Below, piece after piece: positions 12,136-58,943 of a stretch of 64,000 nucleotides of DNA (position 1 is the stretch's first letter; every line of letters starts with the position of its first letter). Both the position numbers and the translations under genes were made by a program. The DNA comes from a phage. The stretch lies in NCBI GenBank assembly GCA_012225525.1, contig GCA_012225525.1_3923.1; one strand, given 5' to 3'. The notes beneath the pieces are model-generated. The model was given only the letters and a program-made list of their open reading frames with translations. It made no database searches and was not told where the DNA came from.

Positions 12136-12465
12136 TTAATCTGCCAACCTTAAATTGAAATTAACACCAAATTTTTCACACACTTCCAACATATACTCAA
12201 GAGAGACATTCCCAGTGAGGTGGATTATGTTGGATACACGAGCTTGAGAGATACCACAAATTTTAGCGACTTGTTCTTGAGAAAGACCTCTGGATTTAAT
12301 CTCTCTCTTAAAACGATGTGCAACGAAGTCTCTCATTTCGTCTACATCCATTGGACAAATATAACTCTCCATTTCAGCCTCTCTATCAGCCTCCCAATCA
12401 TCTTGTGGAGCATAAGGGTCAAAAACCTCATTCATCTTTCTTCTTCCGTTTACGTGAAGTATCAA
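12136..12465 (-). CDS. putative helix-turn-helix DNA-binding protein
   Basis: C-terminal LSQEQVAKICGISQARVSNI resembles XRE/sigma-type HTH. Confidence 0.45.
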   Translation of the reverse strand: MILHVNGRRKMNEVFDPYAPQDDWEADREAEMESYICPMDVDEMRDFVAHRFKREIKSRGLSQEQVAKICGISQARVSNIIHLTGNVSLEYMLEVCEKFGVNFNLRLAD

Positions 12466-21075: not shown

Positions 21076-21331
21076 TTTTACTCCCTCTAAAATCATTAAC
21101 CTCATACATTACTGCAAAAAATTATAAAAAGCAAGTTGACAATGTACTTGACAAGGTGTTAATCTTTGCGAAGTGGGTTTTACTTAAAAGGTTACTTAAC
21201 AGTTTAACTATACAGATACTTTAAAACTCTTAAAAGATTATTTAATAGCTTTTAAAAAGCTTTAAAGTATAACGTATAGAATACGTTAAGATAAAAGATT
21301 AAAACTTAATAGTTACTTAAAAGAGGCTTAC

Positions 21332-21754
21332 ATGCAGAAAATGTTTGTTCACCCAGACATAGCTGACTTTGTTAGAGCTTTGCAGAAGTTGGAAGAACTT
21401 GACATTGCTGCTCAACGGGAATATGCTCACCATCACAGGAGAATGGTTGATATACAACATGAAATAGAGTTATCAGAAGACTATGAAGATGACTTAAAAT
21501 GCTCTGTGTTCGAGCATATGAAAGACGTTGCTATAGCTAGACGTAAAGCTAAAGACACAGTTGCTTTACTAGATTCTCTTAAAAAGAGGTTGCAAAGTGG
21601 TACAGACCTGTGTAATCTAGCGTCACTGATTAACGATGTTGAAACTTCTTGGGATAGGCACTATTATCCACGTTCTGAAAAGACACTTGACTTTTCTTCA
21701 TCCGAAAACTTAAAATGTTCTAGAAAGAAACTTAACCAACTGAGAGAGAAATAA
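21332..21754 (+). CDS. hypothetical protein
   Basis: 140 aa ORF, first plus-strand gene after the divergent intergenic region. Confidence 0.45.
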   Translation: MQKMFVHPDIADFVRALQKLEELDIAAQREYAHHHRRMVDIQHEIELSEDYEDDLKCSVFEHMKDVAIARRKAKDTVALLDSLKKRLQSGTDLCNLASLINDVETSWDRHYYPRSEKTLDFSSSENLKCSRKKLNQLREK

Positions 21755-49684: not shown

Positions 49685-50470
49685 ATGGGTATTGTAAAAA
49701 TAATCAATGGTGATATCTTTGCCGCATTTGATAAAGGTAAGTTTGACATCATCGGTCACGGTTGCAACTGTATGAATTTAATGGGTGCAGGTATCGCTGA
49801 CAAGATTTCTAAACTTTACCCAAAAGCATATGAGACCGATACAGAAGTTTATCTATATGCAGGTGGTATAGGACACAAACCCTGTGAAAATTTACTGGGT
49901 AATTTCTCTGTAGCACGTTTAAAACAAGGTCGTATAGCTAACCTTTACACTCAGCTTAAGACTGGTAAAGATGCCCGATACAGTGCTTTAGAGTCATCTT
50001 TGAAACAGCTTAACAGATACTGTGAAGTTAATCAGTTGAAGAAAGTTGGTTTACCTATGATTGGTGCAGGTATTGGTGGGCTGGACCCTCAAGCTGTCAT
50101 AGTTATCATCAATCAGGTGATGAAGAGTGTAGATGTTTATCTGTATGTCTATGAAGGAGAGATGTACCACAAGTTACGCTCAGGTTGGAAGAACTACTGT
50201 GAACCAGAATACTTTGCAGGTGTAGCAGTGTTCACAGATAACGCAGTTACCCTCTTCAGACGAAGAAAAGGTAAGATACATCAAAGTAACCCTCCGGTTG
50301 AAAAGATGTCTCTGAGTAACGCTCTAGTTACCCACCTGTCGAAGAGCAATCACAGGATTGCAGTAACATTTGGCAGTGATGCAGATACTTATATCTATGC
50401 AAGAACTGATGAGGATATCGAGACAGTTTTCTCTTCACCAGAAGTTACCTTCTTAGACGCAAAGAACTAA
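49685..50470 (+). CDS. macrodomain protein (TARG1/DarG-like ADP-ribose-processing fold) with extra C-terminal domain
   Basis: N-terminal INGDIF...IIGHGCNCMNLMGAGIA...PMIGAGIGGLD parallels TARG1-type motifs (GDLF...H..S.DC.MGAGIA...PRIGCGLD); about 110 aa C-terminal extension of unknown fold. Confidence 0.65.
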   Translation: MGIVKIINGDIFAAFDKGKFDIIGHGCNCMNLMGAGIADKISKLYPKAYETDTEVYLYAGGIGHKPCENLLGNFSVARLKQGRIANLYTQLKTGKDARYSALESSLKQLNRYCEVNQLKKVGLPMIGAGIGGLDPQAVIVIINQVMKSVDVYLYVYEGEMYHKLRSGWKNYCEPEYFAGVAVFTDNAVTLFRRRKGKIHQSNPPVEKMSLSNALVTHLSKSNHRIAVTFGSDADTYIYARTDEDIETVFSSPEVTFLDAKN

Positions 50471-50538
50471 GAAACTCTGTAGAATATTCACAATAGACTA
50501 AGCCTTTCTTATCTGGTAAATTTTTCAGGTAAGGAGGG

Positions 50539-50724
50539 CTTTTTCATTTCAGGATTGTGCAGGTAGAGTTCTGTAGAGAAATCTGTAGAGAGAATTTTGA
50601 ACTCCAAAGAGAAAATTCATTTTCAAACTGTGCAGGTAATCTCCAAAGAGCTTTTTCATTTTCAAAACGTGCAGACCCCGCTCAGGTCGGGCAAGAAAAA
50701 TCATTTTAGAATTGTGCAGGTAGG
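50539..50724. repeat. four direct repeats of a 25-28 nt motif, followed by a C-rich tract
   Basis: CTTTTTCATTTCAGGATTGTGCAGGTAG, AAAATTCATTTTCAAACTGTGCAGGTAAT, CTTTTTCATTTTCAAAACGTGCAGACC, AAAAATCATTTTAGAATTGTGCAGGTAGG; then CCCCTCTCCCCCTCTTACTCCCCCTCTCCCC at 50748-50778. Confidence 0.7.
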
Positions 50725-50898
50725 TTTTTATAGAGAGCCAGACCAACCCCTCTCCCCCTCTTACTCCCCCTCTCCCCAAAAGTCAAGAGAAAAATTTGTA
50801 GTGGATTGAAAAATAATTCTTGATTTGTGTTCTGTTTTGTGGTAGTCGCGTGCGCCCGTTTCATTACAGTTTTGCTAAAAATATTTTTAAAAATTTTC

Positions 50899-50927
50899 TT
50901 GACTCTTTGAACGGGGTTATCTAATAT
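50899..50927 (+). promoter_or_regulatory. sigma70-like promoter heading the small-gene array
   Basis: TTGACT, 17-nt spacer, TAATAT. Confidence 0.55.
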
Positions 50928-50979
50928 TTGCATCAGACGGGGCGACAAGCTCAACAACCTTAAACTAGGAGATTCAAAA

Positions 50980-51360
50980 ATGGCATATCGTGCACCTAAA
51001 TTCATCAACAAAGACAACTTTCGCAACGCACTGGAGAAGTCACTTGATGAAAATTTTAAAGGTAACATTATCGTTGTTCACGCATTCAATTTTAAGTATG
51101 ATGTAAACGGGAATAGAATCAACCATTACACGGCAACCATGTCAGATGGTACACTTTCAAGTGAAAAAGCCGTACTAAATGCACTGGCAGGACGTGGAAA
51201 GGTATTAGTAAGATGTGATAAGAGACGTTATCAGGGCGGCGCATATGGTTATGATGATGCTGTTTACCATCTTGAAAATATGGGCTATCAAGTAGAAAAA
51301 GCTGGAGCATCACAAATCATCGGCAGCGATGGTTATGTAACAATCTTCAAAATTAACTGA
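50980..51360 (+). CDS. small early-type protein 1
   Basis: 126 aa; ATG preceded by conserved CCTTAAACTAGGAGATTCAAAA leader. Confidence 0.6.
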   Translation: MAYRAPKFINKDNFRNALEKSLDENFKGNIIVVHAFNFKYDVNGNRINHYTATMSDGTLSSEKAVLNALAGRGKVLVRCDKRRYQGGAYGYDDAVYHLENMGYQVEKAGASQIIGSDGYVTIFKIN

Positions 51361-51448
51361 TAAAGTACTTTACAAGGGGCTTATAGTTCGATAAAGTAAG
51401 CCCCAGATAAAGAGCTTTACCACTAAATCCTAAATTGGAGATTCAAAA
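51357..51448 (+). promoter_or_regulatory. type-1 intergenic cassette (hairpin plus conserved AGATAAAGAGCTTTACCACT box plus conserved RBS leader)
   Basis: GTACTTTACAAGGGGCTTAtagttcgataaagTAAGCCCCAGATAAAGAGCTTTACCACTAAATCCTAAATTGGAGATTCAAAAATG; near-identical copies at 51737, 52811, 53598, 54876. Confidence 0.7.
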
Positions 51449-51739
51449 ATGGCTACTATCAAAAACGTTGTAATTCCTGTAAAAACTCGTGATGACGCTC
51501 GCATCATGGCGAAAAAGTTAGGCGGGAAAGTGGTTGACAACGGAAAACAATCTGCTGTAAGATGGGGTGTGAAGGCTGATAAACAGTTGAAGTTAAAAAA
51601 TTCACCAATAAATCTTTTTACATGTGTAAACACTATCGGAAAGACAAATGTATACACGAAAAAGGCATATATTAGACGCGTAGCCTTAACATCTCCAATT
51701 CGTACAATGAGAGGTTATGCAAAGCTGAAAATTAACTGA
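51449..51739 (+). CDS. small early-type protein 2 (basic)
   Basis: 96 aa behind a type-1 cassette. Confidence 0.6.
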   Translation: MATIKNVVIPVKTRDDARIMAKKLGGKVVDNGKQSAVRWGVKADKQLKLKNSPINLFTCVNTIGKTNVYTKKAYIRRVALTSPIRTMRGYAKLKIN

Positions 51740-51827
51740 TAAAGTACTTTACAAGGGGCTTAAAAGTTGGTATCTTAAGCCCCAGATAAAGAGCTTTACC
51801 ACTCAATCCTAAACTGGAGATTCAAAA

Positions 51828-52124
51828 ATGAAATTACCAAATAAAGTTCGTGAAAATCTAAGCAAATTACTCAACAAAATTGATTTCATTGAAACATCAA
51901 GAAATAGCCATGATGTTATGGAATGGTTACACGGCAAAATAAAAGGTCGTCGTGTAGTGATTTGCTTATGGAATAGTTGCAGGGAGTATAAAAAACCTGT
52001 ATTGCAAGTTAATATCTATGATGATACTCTTAAAAGTCCTGTCAAATCTAAAAGCGATTTACTAGATTCTTATGAGATAACTGTAAATGGCAAAGTGTCA
52101 CGTAAAGAGGAAGCACCATGTTAA
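51828..52124 (+). CDS. small early-type protein 3
   Basis: 98 aa behind a type-1 cassette. Confidence 0.6.
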   Translation: MKLPNKVRENLSKLLNKIDFIETSRNSHDVMEWLHGKIKGRRVVICLWNSCREYKKPVLQVNIYDDTLKSPVKSKSDLLDSYEITVNGKVSRKEEAPC

Positions 52125-52450
52125 TGACTGGTATCACTGCAATCATTGCCATTTTCGCGCTCTATAAGGCATATAAAGCCTATAATCTAGCAAATAAGGC
52201 AATTACACAACAGGTTAGCAATAACCTTGTAATGAGCTTTCTAGAGCGGTTGAGCGATGAACAATTAAAGCGGTTAGAAATGAGCTTCAGATTCAGGGCG
52301 AGAACTTATCAAATCAGCGACATTTTCAAAGATGATTTTCAATTAGTCGATGATTATAATTCTCTGATAAATGCTTTAAATATTAGTGACTTAAAAGACT
52401 ATCATACTGTAATTGTTCAAGAGTTGAGCAAACGAAAACAAAACTGTTGA
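52118..52450 (+). CDS. small membrane protein 4
   Basis: 110 aa, N-terminal TM helix (TGITAIIAIFALY); overlaps previous stop. Confidence 0.5.
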   Translation: MLMTGITAIIAIFALYKAYKAYNLANKAITQQVSNNLVMSFLERLSDEQLKRLEMSFRFRARTYQISDIFKDDFQLVDDYNSLINALNISDLKDYHTVIVQELSKRKQNC

Positions 52451-52540
52451 CACTGGTTTTTAGATAGATTAAATTACACATCAACGGGGAGGGAATGACC
52501 TTCCCCACTAAATAAAGTCCTTAAACTAGGAGATTCTAAA
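52447..52540 (+). promoter_or_regulatory. type-2 intergenic cassette (promoter TTGACA-17-TAAATT, GC hairpin, conserved RBS leader)
   Basis: TTGACActggtttttagatagatTAAATTacacatcaacGGGGAGGGAATGACCTTCCCCactaaataaagtccttaaactaGGAGAttctaaaATG; related copies at 53310, 54556, 55462, 56057, 56389. Confidence 0.7.
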
Positions 52541-52813
52541 ATGTATACTACTAACAATGGCCGCACTTTGAACGTCACACTACGTCACTATGTAGATGGT
52601 GTCATGCACTTTGAAGATTTACAAGCTGAACAACATATCTTAGATTGGCAAGTCGCAGGACTCCAAAAAACTGCTACGGGATACGGTAAAAAGATTCCAA
52701 CTAGTTGGAAAGTTCACTATGAAGGACGTTTGCGCAGAATTTATCAAGATGTGCAAAGCAATAGTGCATCGAGTTACATTATAGTAAAAGGTAAAAAACT
52801 GCATTTAGTGTAA
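52541..52813 (+). CDS. small early-type protein 5
   Basis: 90 aa behind a type-2 cassette. Confidence 0.6.
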   Translation: MYTTNNGRTLNVTLRHYVDGVMHFEDLQAEQHILDWQVAGLQKTATGYGKKIPTSWKVHYEGRLRRIYQDVQSNSASSYIIVKGKKLHLV

Positions 52814-52896
52814 AGTACTTTACAGGGGGTTATCAAGCTGATAAGATAGCCCCAGATAAAGAGCTTTACCACTAATCCTAAATTGGAGATTCAAAA

Positions 52897-53301
52897 ATGG
52901 CTATCAATAATCGTGAATTATCAATCTTAAAAGCACGTTTGACCGTTAATCGAATCAATGTTATCACGTCATCAGCACCGGATGAAACATTGCACAACAT
53001 TATCGGAAAGATTCAAAGCGTTATCTTAGACGTTGAAAACGTAAAAAGTTCATTGGCTGACGTTGCAGCAGGTATCACGCTAGACGGTGCGCAATATGAA
53101 ATGGCTGACATGTTAGGCAAATCAAAGGTAATGAATAAAGAACTTGATTTAAAAATGTTTCGATTTGCCGTGAAAGTATGGCTATCCGTCGAGTATGACG
53201 CTAATTTTGCAATCGCTGATTTCTTCGCCACTTGGTTGCAACGTAATTTGACAAATCATGATTTTCGTGACATCTGCGACGCAATTTATGCAGAACTCTA
53301 A
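52897..53301 (+). CDS. small early-type protein 6
   Basis: 134 aa behind a type-1 cassette. Confidence 0.6.
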   Translation: MAINNRELSILKARLTVNRINVITSSAPDETLHNIIGKIQSVILDVENVKSSLADVAAGITLDGAQYEMADMLGKSKVMNKELDLKMFRFAVKVWLSVEYDANFAIADFFATWLQRNLTNHDFRDICDAIYAEL

Positions 53302-53402
53302 AAATTTTATTGACACTGATTTTTAGATAGATTAAATTACACATCAACGGGGAGGGAATGACCTTCCCCACTAAGTAAAGTCCTTAAACTAGGAGATTCA
53401 AA

Positions 53403-53600
53403 ATGGCTATTATCAACGGTTTAACCATTGAAACCACGCACATCAAAGACATTAAAGTTGGTGATGTAGTTCTTTCCCACGGCGTAGAAAAAACAGTCAC
53501 TGCAAAGGATATCAAAGATGATTCTTTCATGGGTAGAACTCTCTTCGGTGATTCTTATTGCTTAGGTTATCTTGCAGTTTTAAAAGTTGTCAAAAATTAA
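53403..53600 (+). CDS. small early-type protein 7
   Basis: 65 aa behind a type-2 cassette with TTGACA-17-TAAATT promoter at 53310-53338. Confidence 0.55.
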   Translation: MAIINGLTIETTHIKDIKVGDVVLSHGVEKTVTAKDIKDDSFMGRTLFGDSYCLGYLAVLKVVKN

Positions 53601-53693
53601 CTGATAAAGTACTTTACAAGGGGCTTATAGTTCGATAAAGTAAGCCCCAGATAAAGAGCTTTACCACTAAATCCTTAAACTAGGAGATTCAAA

Positions 53694-54236
53694 ATGAAAT
53701 GCTTTCACGGTACTACTCAAGAAAACTTTATCAACCTGATTAATAACGGTGATAAACCATCAGGTGTATGGAATTGTTCGGATATGGACGGCAATTTTTA
53801 CGTGTACCCAGAAAATAAACTCTATGGTGATGATGAGGAAGAGATAGCATCGGAAGGTATCCAGCAAGCTCTAGGAAATGCCACTATCACGGCAGCTTTT
53901 CAGATGAAAACTCAAAATATTGTTATCTTAGAACTTGACATTCCAGAGGATGAGCTAAATGATGATTATTCTTGTGATAACATGTCAAATATAGCAAGCT
54001 TTACAGAGTACTTTGATGTAAATTGGATTAAAAAGGTCTATACAACAGAGTTCAACGCTATGTATTCACCTTTTTGTCTCCCTTCACTGGATAACCCAAA
54101 TTTAAATTATCTTGATGAAACATTGGAGCTACTTGCTAAAAGTATCCAACAATCCGACAGTATTCAGGTTTTTTGTGACATCATGGATACACTGACAGAA
54201 AACATTGTAGAGAGTGATTTAAAGGTCTTTTTCTAA
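53694..54236 (+). CDS. acidic protein 8
   Basis: 180 aa, rich in Asp/Glu (DDEEEI, IPEDELNDDYSCDNM); behind a type-1 cassette. Confidence 0.6.
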   Translation: MKCFHGTTQENFINLINNGDKPSGVWNCSDMDGNFYVYPENKLYGDDEEEIASEGIQQALGNATITAAFQMKTQNIVILELDIPEDELNDDYSCDNMSNIASFTEYFDVNWIKKVYTTEFNAMYSPFCLPSLDNPNLNYLDETLELLAKSIQQSDSIQVFCDIMDTLTENIVESDLKVFF

Positions 54237-54302
54237 AAACCTATACATTCACCTTATAAACACTGATTAACCCCTTACAGGGGCTTTTAGAGGGCTTAAA
54301 TC

Positions 54303-54536
54303 ATGCTTACAACCATTTATCTCATCCTTTCCATTTGTAACGGCCATTCATGTGACTTTAAAGGGCTTGAAGAGTTTACAGGAAGTAAAGAAAATGCTAT
54401 TCAAGTTTGCCAGATAGCAAGACAAGACTACCCCGCCAGTGATGATATACAATGTTACTTTAAGACAGAAGATGACGAAGGAATCTATTTCGACAGTGTC
54501 GATGGTCAATATGAAATTATCATTGAAAAAGACTAG
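54303..54536 (+). CDS. small acidic protein 9
   Basis: 77 aa; own short leader with a GGGGCTTTTAGAGGGCTT stretch upstream. Confidence 0.5.
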   Translation: MLTTIYLILSICNGHSCDFKGLEEFTGSKENAIQVCQIARQDYPASDDIQCYFKTEDDEGIYFDSVDGQYEIIIEKD

Positions 54537-54629
54537 ACAAGCCTGATAAAAGTCTGTAAATTATCAATCAACGGGGAGGGAATGACCTTCCCCACTAAGT
54601 AAAGTCCTTAAACTAGGAGATTCCAAAAA

Positions 54630-54878
54630 ATGTATACTAAAACTCAACTAAAAAACATGGTTAGCAATGGCTTAATGGATGAAGTCTATAAAGAGTGTAG
54701 ACGCTACGGGGAAATTAAGGATAAGACTAGTTATGAGTATACCCACACAATAGACTTTAAAACCAATGAGAAGAGGACTGACCTTGTTACTGTAGTAGTG
54801 ATTGAGTATAAACGAATTATTTGGACCTTTGAGCTAGTAAAAGGTGAGTGCACAGAGATAGAATATAAAGACGCTTAA
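54630..54878 (+). CDS. small early-type protein 10
   Basis: 82 aa behind a type-2 cassette. Confidence 0.6.
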   Translation: MYTKTQLKNMVSNGLMDEVYKECRRYGEIKDKTSYEYTHTIDFKTNEKRTDLVTVVVIEYKRIIWTFELVKGECTEIEYKDA

Positions 54879-54963
54879 AGTACTTTACATGGGGCTTATT
54901 AGTCTGTATAGTAAGCCCCAGATAAAGAGCTTTACCACTCAATCCTAAACTGGAGATTCTAAA

Positions 54964-55305
54964 ATGGCTTATGTAACCGTAATTACCGATAAAGCTGGCT
55001 CATCTTGGTCAACTCAAGTAAGTGATAAGATGTCACCTATGCAGTGCCTAAAATACTTTGAACAGTGGAACAAAGGCGAGGGTGTAAGCCCCTTTCAAGT
55101 GATGCAAATCATCCATACAGATAACGAAGGGAATAAAACGACCTTGAACAGTGAATACTACGCAAGCCGTTTTGAAACGAGAAGTAAAACAATGAAGCTT
55201 TTACGTGAATCCGGTTATGCACATATTGCCGCTTTAATCTGGGATGACCTGCTAAAAAGTCAGCGTATCAGCTATGTAAAACCTGAAAAAATATTCATCA
55301 GTTAA
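54964..55305 (+). CDS. small early-type protein 11
   Basis: 113 aa behind a type-1 cassette. Confidence 0.6.
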   Translation: MAYVTVITDKAGSSWSTQVSDKMSPMQCLKYFEQWNKGEGVSPFQVMQIIHTDNEGNKTTLNSEYYASRFETRSKTMKLLRESGYAHIAALIWDDLLKSQRISYVKPEKIFIS

Positions 55306-55433
55306 TCAATAACTTATAAAAAACTTTTAAAAAAGTGTTGACAATACCCATTGACATTGGTAACTTTGTTCGAGGGGGTTATCTAAAAGGGATTCACTTA
55401 ATAGATTCTTTATAGATAAACTTAAAAAATTGC

Positions 55434-55462
55434 TTGCAAAGGCAAATCAAAACAAGTATAGT
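55434..55462 (+). promoter_or_regulatory. sigma70-like promoter
   Basis: TTGCAA, 17-nt spacer, TATAGT, just upstream of a type-2 hairpin/RBS leader; further TTGACA motifs at 55338 and 55351. Confidence 0.55.
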
Positions 55463-55526
55463 ACTAATCAACGGGGAGGGAATGACCTTCCCCACTAAGT
55501 AAAGTCCTTAAACTAGGAGATTCAAA

Positions 55527-56057
55527 ATGAACAAGTTTCAAGCTATCAACTACATTCGCTCATCTAACGTTATGACTAAACCCGTTAAAGATACCTTCGA
55601 ATTTCGTTGCAACGGTGTACACTTTGCAACTATCACTAAATCAGAAAACGGGGCTTATTATATACATCGTCGTAATGTTTCTACTGTTGTAGTATCTCAC
55701 TTTATGCAAGCTGTAGCAGAACTGTTACCGCTATTCTTAGGTATTTACTTAGATGAGTGTAAAAACGTTCGCAACCACGTTAAAGACCTTTTAAATGGTT
55801 ATAAAATGGCTTATGAACGTTCTATCAAGAATCTTAACAAGTTCTATAAAGCCCCTGAAAACACCGTATCAATAGCTTATGATGTAAGCGGTGAAATGGT
55901 CAACCTCTCCAATGTAGAACAAATTGGCCTTTATGATTTACGTCCTAGCGGTTATTCTAAGACTCTCGGTGAAGGCTTATCCTTCAATATCAAGAACTTA
56001 GAAAAAACTTTAAAAGATATTGAAAAAGATATTGACGAGACAATCAAAAGTCTGTAA
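55527..56057 (+). CDS. early-type protein 12
   Basis: 176 aa behind a type-2 cassette. Confidence 0.6.
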   Translation: MNKFQAINYIRSSNVMTKPVKDTFEFRCNGVHFATITKSENGAYYIHRRNVSTVVVSHFMQAVAELLPLFLGIYLDECKNVRNHVKDLLNGYKMAYERSIKNLNKFYKAPENTVSIAYDVSGEMVNLSNVEQIGLYDLRPSGYSKTLGEGLSFNIKNLEKTLKDIEKDIDETIKSL

Positions 56058-56124
56058 ATTGTCAATCAACGGGGAGGGATTAACCTTCCCACTAAGTAAA
56101 GTCCTTAAACTAGGAGATTCAAAA

Positions 56125-56388
56125 ATGGAAAACGTAGAATTAACCACACTTTTACAAATTGCAACCGACAAAGAAGATGTAGCATTATTCCACCGTATCG
56201 AAAGCGATTTGTTCAATGGTGAAATCATTAAAGAATCTTACGAAGTTGTCGGATTCAAAGATGGTAAAGCATTTGGCTTTTTTGACCTCGACAAAAGCAA
56301 AGCGGTTACAATGTACGATGTTCTATCTTGTGAAATTCTGACAAAATACAACGAAAAAAGGCTTGCAACCTACGCCAATATGCAGTAA
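56125..56388 (+). CDS. small early-type protein 13
   Basis: Start at ATG 56125 (MENVELTT...) after conserved leader; the ORF-track start at 56020 reads through the cassette and is unlikely. Confidence 0.55.
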   Translation: MENVELTTLLQIATDKEDVALFHRIESDLFNGEIIKESYEVVGFKDGKAFGFFDLDKSKAVTMYDVLSCEILTKYNEKRLATYANMQ

Positions 56389-56455
56389 ATTACTAATCAA
56401 CGGGGAGGGAATGACCTTCCCACTAAACAAAGTCCTAAACTGGAGAATCTAAATT

Positions 56456-56704
56456 ATGTCAACTATCCGCGTAACTGTTAATGCTTATGGCTGCCACCAA
56501 CTTGATGCAAAATTCGATATCGGTGGAACAGATAACACCTTTGACCTTATCAAAATGCTGATTCAGCAGGTGATACCAGATTATAACCCTACTGATGACT
56601 TCTGGAAAGATGCCGTAAAAGAAGCCATAAACGAGGAATCTCACTACCATTATTGGGGTGACTTGATTATCTCTCTGTACTACAGCAAACAAGGTTACAA
56701 CTAA
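56456..56704 (+). CDS. small early-type protein 14
   Basis: 82 aa behind a variant type-2 cassette. Confidence 0.55.
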   Translation: MSTIRVTVNAYGCHQLDAKFDIGGTDNTFDLIKMLIQQVIPDYNPTDDFWKDAVKEAINEESHYHYWGDLIISLYYSKQGYN

Positions 56705-56712
56705 TCGACGCA

Positions 56713-56770
56713 ACGGGGCTAAATAGCCCCAGATACCTGAAAAGCTCCTTCTCATAGGGGCTTTTTTACG
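56713..56770 (+). terminator. putative terminator at end of small-gene array
   Basis: GGGGCTaaatAGCCCC hairpin, then CATAGGGGCTTTTTTACG. Confidence 0.45.
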
Positions 56771-58340
56771 TCTATAAAGAGACTCTATACAATCCCTTTC
56801 CTTTCCTTCCTAGAATCTATCCCGTACCTTAAAAGCAATAACTCTATAGGTTATTCTATAGCCCCTTATCAAATCAACTTAAATAAAAGCCAATAACCCC
56901 AGAAAGGGGATGGCCCATTAAAACGCTCTATAAAGCTCTATAACAGCCTTATCAACCTAACTTAAGCAATCATATTAACCCACTCTAAAAAGCCCTTTAT
57001 AGAGCTTCCCAGAGCCTTAAAAGAATCTTATAAGGGTGTAAGTTTATAGGCTGGCTAGTATCTTGTGAATAACTAAACAATCCCCTTGATAGTCACTAAA
57101 AAGCATGTTATAGGGGGTATAAAGTTACTTCAAAGTAACGTAAAAAAGGCTATAAAGTTACGTAAATGCTAGCCCCCTTAACATTTTCTTAACAATTTCT
57201 TAACAATCCCTACATAGTTATGCTTGTTAGCCCCTTGTTAAATCTCTGTTAAGACCACGTAAAAGCCTTGTAAGAGTCTTTGACATAGCCTTAAAAGCTC
57301 CTGTAAAGCCCTATAAAGAGGTGTCTGTATAGTTGGGGTGTAATTACTAGGAAGAGACTTAAAAGAGCTTACAAGGAGCTATAGAGAGCTTTTAAGAGGT
57401 ATGTTTAAGAGTTCACTAAGAAAGGAAGGGAACGATAAGAAAAGAGATAGTGACCATGTTAATAGCTTGTTAAAAAGATTAAACACTTGTTAGGAACTTG
57501 TTAATTATCTTAATTGGTATTGTTACCAATCCCTACAAAATAACTCTTTAAAATTAACTTGTTAGCTCTTGTTAGTCATCTGTTAAGCCTCTGTAAAGAC
57601 TATTCAGCACTTGTTAGAAAACTGTTAAGCCCTTGTTAGTTCTGTTAAGAAACTGTTAAGACCTTTGAAGAGATGTTAAGAGCTTGAGAGAGTTGTTAAG
57701 AGATTGTTAAGGATATTTTAAAATTTTGCAAAGTACTTGTAAGGGAGCTGTTAAGGGCTACCAAGCAGATATACATCTTCTACAGATATTTTTCAGTCCC
57801 TTCAAAGACCCTAAAAAATGACTTGATAGTCCTATTTTATAAAAATTTTAAAATTCTGAATAATTACCTAGACAGTCTTTTAAAAATACAGGTAGAAACA
57901 GGCTTATAAGATACCTTGTTAGTACCGTGTTAGACCTTGTGAGATAAGGTCTGTAAAGATATTCCTGTTAAGTTTGTTAAAACAGTCTATATAGAGGCTT
58001 AGTAGTGCCTAGTGAACACCTATAGAGGGTAACATAGCTAACCTAGAGATTAAGAGGTGTATAGGAGCTTCTAAGAGGGTGTAGAGAGATGGTTAAGGTG
58101 ATTGTATAGGTTGTTAAGAAGGCTTGTTAGAAGAGTGTTTAGAAGGGCTATACAGAGGGGCTATTAAGACCACTAGATAGATACTAAGATACTATATAGT
58201 ACTATATAACTATATAGAGAGTAAGATTAAGAAGGTTGTTAAGAAGGGTAGATATTTTATTCACATATGATGGTGACCCAGCGGTTGGGACAACCGATAA
58301 ATTTTATAAAAATTAAAAAGCCCCCGATTAAGGAGGCTCT
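56770..58340. repeat. 1.6 kb ORF-free region dense in short degenerate direct repeats (CTATAAAG/CTATAGAG family, then TGTTAAG/TGTTAG family)
   Basis: No ORF of 60 aa or more on either strand; at least 12 exact TGTTAAG plus many TGTTAG/TGTAAAG variants clustered at 57200-58260; CTATAAAG/CTATAGAG words at 56770-57420; lies between convergently transcribed blocks. Confidence 0.8.
58314..58340 (-). terminator. putative terminator (minus strand)
   Basis: On the minus strand GAGCCTCC...GGGGGCTT hairpin followed by TTTTTAATTTTT. Confidence 0.4.
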
Positions 58341-58349
58341 TAAGATATT

Positions 58350-58943
58350 TTAAATCAGTGTTTCCAGAACTGTTTTCAATGATGACTTGGTTGTCTGATA
58401 AAAATGAGTAAATCCATTGTTATTATCGAATACCTGCATCATGATATCATCTCCCTTGATTGGGTACACTCGGATATCATAGTGAAAACCATTAAAGACA
58501 CAAGAGCCATTACAGAATGCACTAAAGTCATCCACTGAGATATACTCTTCATGTCCTGTGATTTTTATACAAACACCTTTACTCGGTCTCTTAGGGTTGA
58601 TATCTTCCATCACAGACATACTCTGTCCACCAAGAGACACCATAGTGACCACTTTACGGTTCTTCTGTTTAAAGTACATCTTAACTTTCTGCAAAGTGTC
58701 TTCATAGAACGGATAAGACTTCTCTACAAATATTCCTTCAAGTGGCTCTTTACCATTTTCAACTTCTCTGGTATGTCGTACTGCAAAGATAATTTGTTGG
58801 AACCAGTCAAGATTTTCTTCGGAGAGTGCTTCTCGAACATCACTCCAGTCAAGGACTAGATAGTTACCTTCAACTTCTTTTAAGTTATCTTTTTCCATAT
58901 CTATCACACCATTATCGTAAAACTTGATATTCTGGTACTGCAA
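58350..58943 (-). CDS. hypothetical protein
   Basis: 197 aa ORF, last gene of minus-strand block. Confidence 0.5.
   Translation of the reverse strand: MQYQNIKFYDNGVIDMEKDNLKEVEGNYLVLDWSDVREALSEENLDWFQQIIFAVRHTREVENGKEPLEGIFVEKSYPFYEDTLQKVKMYFKQKNRKVVTMVSLGGQSMSVMEDINPKRPSKGVCIKITGHEEYISVDDFSAFCNGSCVFNGFHYDIRVYPIKGDDIMMQVFDNNNGFTHFYQTTKSSLKTVLETLI

Follow-up and report, generated by a model that had tools for sequence, protein, structure and literature searches.

Between a macro-domain gene and an array of small early genes, this phage carries four direct repeats in DNA with no evident gene, and the question raised by the locus is what these repeats are for. The window, meaning the whole 64-kb stretch of DNA that was analysed (64,000 nucleotides), was assigned with a 701-bp query around the array. 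Matches were found in 289 phage records, and in 205 of these at least 80% of the query was covered. The Salmonella phages FSL SP-012 and SP-010 (99%) and GE_vB_7A (98%) came first, and the remaining matches were Felix O1-like phages of E. coli, Salmonella, Shigella, Citrobacter and Erwinia. By these matches, the window is a Felixounavirus genome (subfamily Ounavirinae). A first-pass annotation of the sequence had suggested a regulator-binding array or an origin-like element at this position. It overlooked the terminator t13, which abuts repeat 1, and its 25-28 nt motif is only part of the true repeating unit, which includes a second conserved box (CTCCAAAGAG or GTCGGGCAAG).

The repeat array and its genomic setting

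The gap is followed by an array of small genes, every one with its own promoter. The features of the region are as follows, in window coordinates:

49685-50470: macro-domain gene (Pfam Macro), the upstream border of the gap
50471-50979: non-coding gap of 509 bp, with the macro-domain gene upstream and the first small early gene downstream
50500-50541, plus strand: Rho-independent terminator closing the upstream operon, with a 17-bp stem and a T-run (terminator scan)
50542-50565, plus strand: repeat 1, TCATTTCAGGATTGTGCAGGTA at 50544, with core 50544-50561 (TCATTTCAGGATTGTGCA) and then GGTA; matrix score 30.9 bits
50571-50590, plus strand: two CTGTAGAG boxes, at 50571 and 50583, inside the 73-bp interval of repeats 1-2
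50602-50638, plus strand: unit 2, with box CTCCAAAGAG (50602-50611), an A/T pentamer and repeat 2 (50615-50638)
50617-50634, plus strand: core of repeat 2, TCATTTTCAAACTGTGCAGGTA at 50617; matrix score 35.6 bits
50641-50677, plus strand: unit 3, with box CTCCAAAGAG (50641-50650), an A/T pentamer and repeat 3 (50654-50677)
50656-50673, plus strand: core of repeat 3, TCATTTTCAAAACGTGCAGACC at 50656, a CGTGCAGACC variant; matrix score 29.2 bits
50686-50722, plus strand: unit 4, with box GTCGGGCAAG (50686-50695), AAAAA and repeat 4 (50699-50722)
50701-50718, plus strand: core of repeat 4, TCATTTTAGAATTGTGCAGGTA at 50701; matrix score 32.5 bits
50719-50777: spacer of 59 nt, fixed in length and swappable in sequence, here the C-type allele, ending in a 31-nt C-tract
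50778-50829: conserved A/T-rich block, AAAAGTCAAGAGAAAAATTTGTAG..TGAAAAATAATTCTTGATTTGTG
50899-50927, plus strand: sigma-70-type promoter P1, TTGACT-17-TAATAT, the first of the small-gene array (promoter scan)

The core 18-mer TCATTTYNRNWNYGTGCA occurs in the gap in four plus-strand copies, at 50544, 50617, 50656 and 50701, with start-to-start spacing of 73, 39 and 45 bp, so that the four direct repeats of the first-pass annotation are confirmed in the sequence. Its paired boxes are also present, CTCCAAAGAG at 50602 and 50641 and CTGTAGAG at 50571 and 50583; the latter are semi-conserved in alignments as TCTG(T/G)A(G/C)AG. Copies 1, 2 and 4 run on into GGTA and copy 3 is without this end. The repeating unit measures approximately 37-45 bp and is composed of a box (CTCCAAAGAG, GTCGGGCAAG or GTCTGGCAAG), five A/T positions and then the 18-mer. 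Repeat 1 is found in relatives from all four genera sampled. A degenerate fifth repeat-like copy, of a family 82% identical to repeat 4, lies at 50808-50829 within the A/T-rich block, and the AAAAGTCAA.AGAAAAAT sequence of this block (also AAAAGTCAA.AGAAAAATTTGTAG) is invariant across 15 diverse sequences.

The annotation had also asked how frequent the motif is elsewhere. Exact TGTGCAGGTA occurs three times in 64 kb, each time in the array. A 24-nt weight matrix was built from 34 copies in nine other phages, leaving out the window's own copies to avoid circularity. The four sites of the window score 29.2-35.6 bits with this matrix, and the runner-up in the window reaches 12.3 bits, which is at chance level (the best score across 20 shuffles was 16). 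No matrix site was found in 23 kb of a close relative that is absent from the window, which brings the sequence covered to approximately 87 kb, and neither search found the motif above chance outside the array. The array is one locus per genome, with all copies in the same orientation.

Upstream, the T-run of the terminator (50540-50549) extends into repeat 1. The terminator sequence is that of Felix O1 t13, the strongest terminator listed for that phage (-21.8 kcal/mol; PMC3185647), and a hairpin of differing sequence is retained at this position in Moogle, EcoM2 and phiEa21-4. Downstream, P1 is preceded by an A/T tract (50859-50898) that is among the least stable 0.3% of 40-bp windows, and the P1 hexamers are conserved in all genera sampled. 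Felix O1 ORFs 13, 16 and 20-22 reach maximal expression at 5 min, and the numbering of that study, in which t13 follows gene 13 and t23 follows gene 23, places ORFs 16 and 20-22 in the homologous array (PMC3185647). The later promoters of the array (51360-56750) sit in hairpin cassettes, such as TTTACA AGGGGCTTA...TAAGCCCC, that are repeated between genes and correspond to the repeats DR_1 to DR_9 annotated in wV8. These cassettes are terminator-promoter modules at which small genes have been gained and lost between relatives.

The position of the array relative to the genome ends was also determined. The genomes of Felix O1-like phages are linear, are not permuted and carry terminal repeats of approximately 0.6 kb; for UAB_Phi87, Bal31 digestion and run-off sequencing proved repeats of 608 bp (PMC4837284). 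The annotated 581-bp terminal repeat of Pr103Blw, found by PhageTerm, maps by homology to window positions 57172-57762, which are the physical ends, and the GE_vB_7A and H12 records begin at the same place. Measured from the right end, the array is 6.8-7.1 kb into the genome (7.7-8% of its length), where the terminal small-gene block has its inner edge. It was rejected as a genome terminus or packaging site because the terminal repeat maps 6.4 kb downstream of it. The terminal repeat lies within a non-coding region of 1.6 kb (56755-58350) packed with 25 copies of YTGTTAR, often at periods of 10-11 or 20-31 bp, where the rest of the window has 1.2 per kb. Inverted blocks are found near the borders of the repeat (57178-57206 and 57693-57721), and this is likely a packaging or end-recognition region. 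The 8-mer YTRTAGAG is present three times in the 0.5 kb of the gap (50571, 50583 and 50728), six times in the 1.6 kb of the terminal-repeat region and flanks (56842-58020) and at 0.36 per kb elsewhere, an enrichment that hints at a second motif common to both non-coding regions.

Conservation in the Ounavirinae and the exchangeable spacer

The array is present in all four Ounavirinae genera sampled, always directly downstream of the macro-domain gene. Spacing of 73/39/45 bp is found in 22 distinct Felixounavirus and Suspvirus sequences, 75/41/45 in Mooglevirus and 37/37/39 in Kolesnikvirus, where an extra 18-mer copy lies inside the interval corresponding to repeats 1-2 (37+37 bp). Viable variants with three copies have spacing of 75/45 and 73/45; BPSELC-1 is without one 39-bp unit, and EcoM2-type phages likewise have three copies. 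At the nucleotide level, identity of the gap exceeds that of the macro-domain gene in mistaenkt (85% vs 73%), the Moogle group (75-78% vs 70%) and EcoM2 (82% vs 56%). This does not hold for the complete gap of phiEa21-4 (49% vs 51%); the macro-domain protein of this Erwinia phage is 37% identical, the repeats are the sole part of its gap that still aligns, and what BLAST still matches is unit 4 (query 146-248). The bases following TGTGCA switch in all copies together between genera, from GGTA to TAG (CAGGTA vs CATAG).

Extra small genes in KhF2, dune and BPSELC-1 are inserted after P1 and never within the array, and the idea that these insertions disrupt the element was rejected. Mosaic junctions do fall inside the gap, at the EcoM2-type left half and at the C-type and G-type spacers. 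An exact-motif scan of viral contigs returned many single chance matches, with clusters confined to Ounavirinae contigs, and no repeats follow the gene in more distant macro-domain phages (41% identity).

The C-rich tract of 31 nt reported by the first-pass annotation is present at 50747-50777 (CCCCTCTCCCCCTCTTACTCCCCCTCTCCCC). It is the sole (C3+N1-7)x3 C3+ pattern in the 64-kb window, where 0.03 are expected from shuffles, and with 22 C it is the most C-rich 31-mer; all 17 of the 31-nt windows with at least 18 C overlap it. The tract fits a G-quadruplex/i-motif pattern, with the G-quadruplex motif on the minus strand, and when read directly it is a near-perfect pyrimidine mirror repeat with 14-nt arms (CCCCTCTCCCCCTC, TTA, CTCCCCCTCTCCCC). 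Its place as a fixed part of the element was not upheld, as a G-rich segment of the same 59-nt length stands in its place in approximately 40% of the distinct relatives sampled. This alternative allele (GGTGGGTGTAGGTGGGG...ACATCTGAAAAT) aligns without gaps, and the C-type and G-type spacers are unrelated sequences of equal length between repeat 4 and the invariant block. Automatic sorting of 35 complete distinct sequences gave 15 C-type, 11 G-type and nine unsorted spacers. The nine were assigned by hand as three G-type, two C-type, three Kolesnikvirus spacers with a shorter C-rich run and one chimeric contig, for final counts of approximately 17 C-type and 14 G-type. The C-tract is thus not indispensable but the 59-nt distance is retained, in keeping with a complex that would reach from the repeats to the downstream block.

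In public assemblies, breaks or corrupted sequence occur at or near the C-tract. Two IMG/VR contigs stop at ...CTCTTACTC(C), and one continues directly into Nextera adapter sequence. VpaE1_ev035 carries adapter remnants CTGTCTCT/AGAGACAG between a duplicated CTCTTACTCCCCCT near the tract (records cited include MK482690). LMP34 stops where the tract begins, the Moogle-like contig L028 stops approximately 30 nt past it, and contig L023 becomes chimeric approximately 57 nt upstream of it, after repeat 3. These faults may stem from a problem in sequencing or tagmentation, from a structure in the DNA or from a nick. The tract is of practical importance because several public assemblies break or take up adapter there.

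Alternative identities and functions of the region

The idea that the region encodes a product, either a small protein such as the 50-aa ORF 50557-50709 or a non-coding RNA with protein-binding repeats, is the least probable of those considered. Of 29 distinct homologous sequences, 20 have ORF 50557-50709 (gp13 in the wV8 annotation) intact, and small ORFs are annotated at this place in wV8 and other records. In wV8 itself, however, a frameshift or stop interrupts the ORF, as is also the case in all five Mooglevirus-type sequences and the EcoM2-type allele, and by reading there is no ribosome-binding site at a usable distance from its GTG start. The two overlapping ORFs that had been called spurious, 50597-50809 (plus strand) and 50549-50779 (minus strand), are indeed so, being intact in only 5/29 and 6/29. 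A protein-coding gene was rejected because reading frames are not kept across relatives. For an RNA, RNAalifold analysis of 15 diverse sequences gave -17.8 kcal/mol on the plus strand and -6.3 on the minus strand with 0 compensatory pairs. Single-sequence folding was no better than that of shuffles on the plus strand (z-score +0.18) and worse on the minus strand (+1.79), and the Rfam scan of the region returned noise only. A structured non-coding RNA was rejected on the basis of this lack of covariation, excess folding energy on either strand and an Rfam family. A -35-like TTGACT on the minus strand (50787-50782) is conserved and would favour a transcript, but its '-10', TAAGAG, is without the key final T, and no promoter/terminator pair lies inside the region on either strand. 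It is also highly improbable that the repeats have no function of their own and are a tandem-duplicated relic of a terminator tail, or a homology patch for module recombination. GCTTTTTCATTT is also the tail of Felix O1 terminator t5 (PMC3185647), and the mosaic junctions within the gap also speak for such a view. Neutral repeats, however, would not hold their number, orientation and spacing where the macro-domain protein is just 37-70% identical, nor would they remain the only alignable part of the phiEa21-4 gap.

Several identities of known sequence type were also examined. The promoter scan detected no sigma-70 promoter inside the repeats on either strand, and -10-like hexamers after the motif are not conserved in the alignments. 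The element is unique in the genome and so is not a promoter class, there being no other above-chance site in the window or the further 23 kb. IHF sites are absent from the repeats in this phage, and by eye there are no consistent matches to CsrA-, Hfq- or boxA-like RNA motifs, Chi, KOPS, sigma-54 or sigma-E. The Chi site GCTGGTGG is absent from both strands of the 64-kb window. Inverted repeats in the region are limited to short imperfect matches of an often-chance kind.

A replication origin, the strongest of the competing readings, is unlikely, though a good deal less so than a gene or a relic. The repeats would then be iterons for an initiator, the A/T block or the A/T tract before P1 would melt, and P1 transcription, or an R-loop stabilised by the skewed C/G tract, would help to load the T7-gp4-like primase-helicase. 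The iteron arrays of lambda ori, P1 oriR, R6K and pSC101 likewise consist of 3-4 direct repeats of approximately 18-24 bp, in the same orientation at one locus, next to A/T-rich DNA and a promoter, with copy number varying slightly between relatives. The single locus of 3-4 repeats in one orientation, the low stability of the A/T tract, the strong promoter adjoining it and the strand asymmetry given by the C-tract or its G-rich replacement all agree with this. Classical iterons are spaced at approximately 22 bp, whereas the Felix O1-like array has a spacing of 37-75 bp and a second conserved box in each unit. The array is without an adjacent or identifiable initiator gene, no Rep-like or other family of known DNA-binding or replication-initiator function was found among the 20 neighbouring proteins scanned, and the H12 annotation lists no replication initiator. 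In this phage the repeats are also not DnaA boxes, each having at least three mismatches to TTATNCACA where a match with at most one was sought. To our knowledge, the array has no sequence similarity to the lambda ori, P1 oriR, R6K or pSC101 origins. In favour of an origin, the phage has genes for a DNA polymerase and a primase/helicase of its own, and the literature describes no origin for it (PMC3185647). In this phage, the minima of DNA stability and GC skew fall at approximately 21.2 kb and in the terminal-repeat region. The lowest cumulative GC skew and the least stable 100 bp of the window are both at approximately 21.2 kb, and at 2-kb resolution there is no skew change at 50.5 kb. Skew and stability point to that other site as the more conventional origin candidate. 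At 21080-21332, a divergent A/T-rich gap with CTTAAAAG repeats and a 27-nt near-palindrome adjoins the DNA polymerase gene, and it is a more conventional candidate for an origin or for early divergent promoters.

The location of the array also recalls the injection stop signal (iss) of phage T5, although a genome-entry checkpoint of this kind is very unlikely here. The right-hand 8% of the genome, with the immediate-early small genes, would enter and be expressed first, and an early phage protein or one associated with the membrane would hold the DNA at the repeats until takeover functions have been established. In T5, the stop signal is a conserved repeat region, not translated, that lies 7.9% from the end that enters (bioRxiv 10.1101/866236). 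If the right end is the one to enter first, the array, 7.7-8% from it and bordering the early small genes on their inner side, would have the corresponding position. Both elements are better conserved than the neighbouring genes. In Kolesnikvirus (phiEa21-4 1443-1908), each of the four copies, read on the opposite strand, is a DnaA box with a single mismatch (CTATGCACA or TTATGCACG), a feature that Davison proposed for T5; the copies in Felixounavirus are not such boxes. The T5 iss, however, measures approximately 1.2-1.6 kb, lies largely inside the long terminal repeat, is mostly inverted repeats and palindromes with eight paired DnaA boxes, and works with A1/A2 (bioRxiv 10.1101/866236). The array is approximately 180 bp of direct repeats only, without inverted repeats or palindromes or, in this phage, DnaA boxes, and the 0.6-kb terminal repeat does not include it. 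The array proteins gave no match to an A1- or A2-like family, and in the literature searched two-step transfer is unreported for Felix O1-like myoviruses. If this reading were true, an entry stop in a contractile-tailed phage would be an independently evolved analogue of that of T5, with a different sequence architecture.

A proposed protein-binding array at the early genes

On the comparative evidence, the array is most probably a cis-acting protein-binding element on double-stranded DNA. The part of the first-pass proposal that stands is that of a unique, non-coding element of protein-binding type between the macro-domain gene and the first promoter. A sequence-specific protein would bind the four repeats, each with its accompanying box, on double-stranded DNA, would fill three to four sites and would form a higher-order complex spanning the fixed 59-nt spacer to the conserved A/T block upstream of P1. 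The complex may then set or shut off transcription of the early array, or insulate the array from read-through of the upstream operon. Such specific control or insulation of early transcription is suggested only tentatively, with the probability somewhat below even; it is favoured because the array occupies the stretch from the strongest terminator to P1. The distance of 180-360 bp from the repeats to P1 downstream is long for a simple operator and counts against this role. In the matrix scan the other promoters of the array had no copy of the motif, so direct action through the sites would be possible on P1 only.

Known multi-site systems provide a partial likeness. P2 Cox boxes and 186 Apl sites are likewise several sites of the same orientation near an early promoter, and sopC of F likewise has a repeat unit of approximately 40 bp. 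In each of these a small protein builds a higher-order complex on the repeats. Cox and Apl boxes are approximately 9-10 bp, are spaced at about one helical turn and overlap the promoters that they control. The F centromere sopC, which serves partition, has a 43-bp repeat in 12 units that contain internal inverted repeats. Among the proteins scanned, none was Cox-, Apl- or SopB-like.

The binding protein is probably encoded by the phage. From genus to genus, the 3' half of the repeat differs in all copies at once, and this concerted change appears to fit a partner encoded by the phage better than a host factor with a specificity common to these hosts. In the neighbour scan, the ten array proteins were compared with PHROGs only; all of them, at 180 aa or less, belong to PHROG families of unknown function. 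Among the neighbours scanned against PHROGs, 4/10 have names that are not DNA-binding (polynucleotide kinase, phosphatase), and the macro-domain protein is the sole Pfam match. Elsewhere in the window, a Cro/C1-type helix-turn-helix (HTH) protein of 99 aa is encoded at 12139-12435 on the minus strand (Pfam HTH_3, E 4e-11). The annotation of the related H12 genome lists no other sequence-specific DNA-binding protein. This protein is only a candidate partner of the repeats, and the HTH_3 class usually binds inverted and not direct repeats, which counts against it.

The Felix O1, wV8 and comparative Felixounavirus papers give longer repeats, terminators and promoters, but not this array, and the literature searched yielded no transcriptome or RNA-seq data and no description of it; the Bas63 knockout screen has only genes as targets. 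The array is treated for this reason as an undescribed element of a familiar kind. In the sequences compared, it is the best-conserved non-coding sequence found next to the early genes of Felix O1-like phages. These phages are widely used in Salmonella and E. coli typing, biocontrol and therapy. For the siting of engineered payloads, the natural insertions examined follow P1 and none falls in the array. The array is also useful for recognising members of the subfamily in metagenomes, and it provides a concrete target of approximately 180 bp that could lead to an early-gene switch or an origin.
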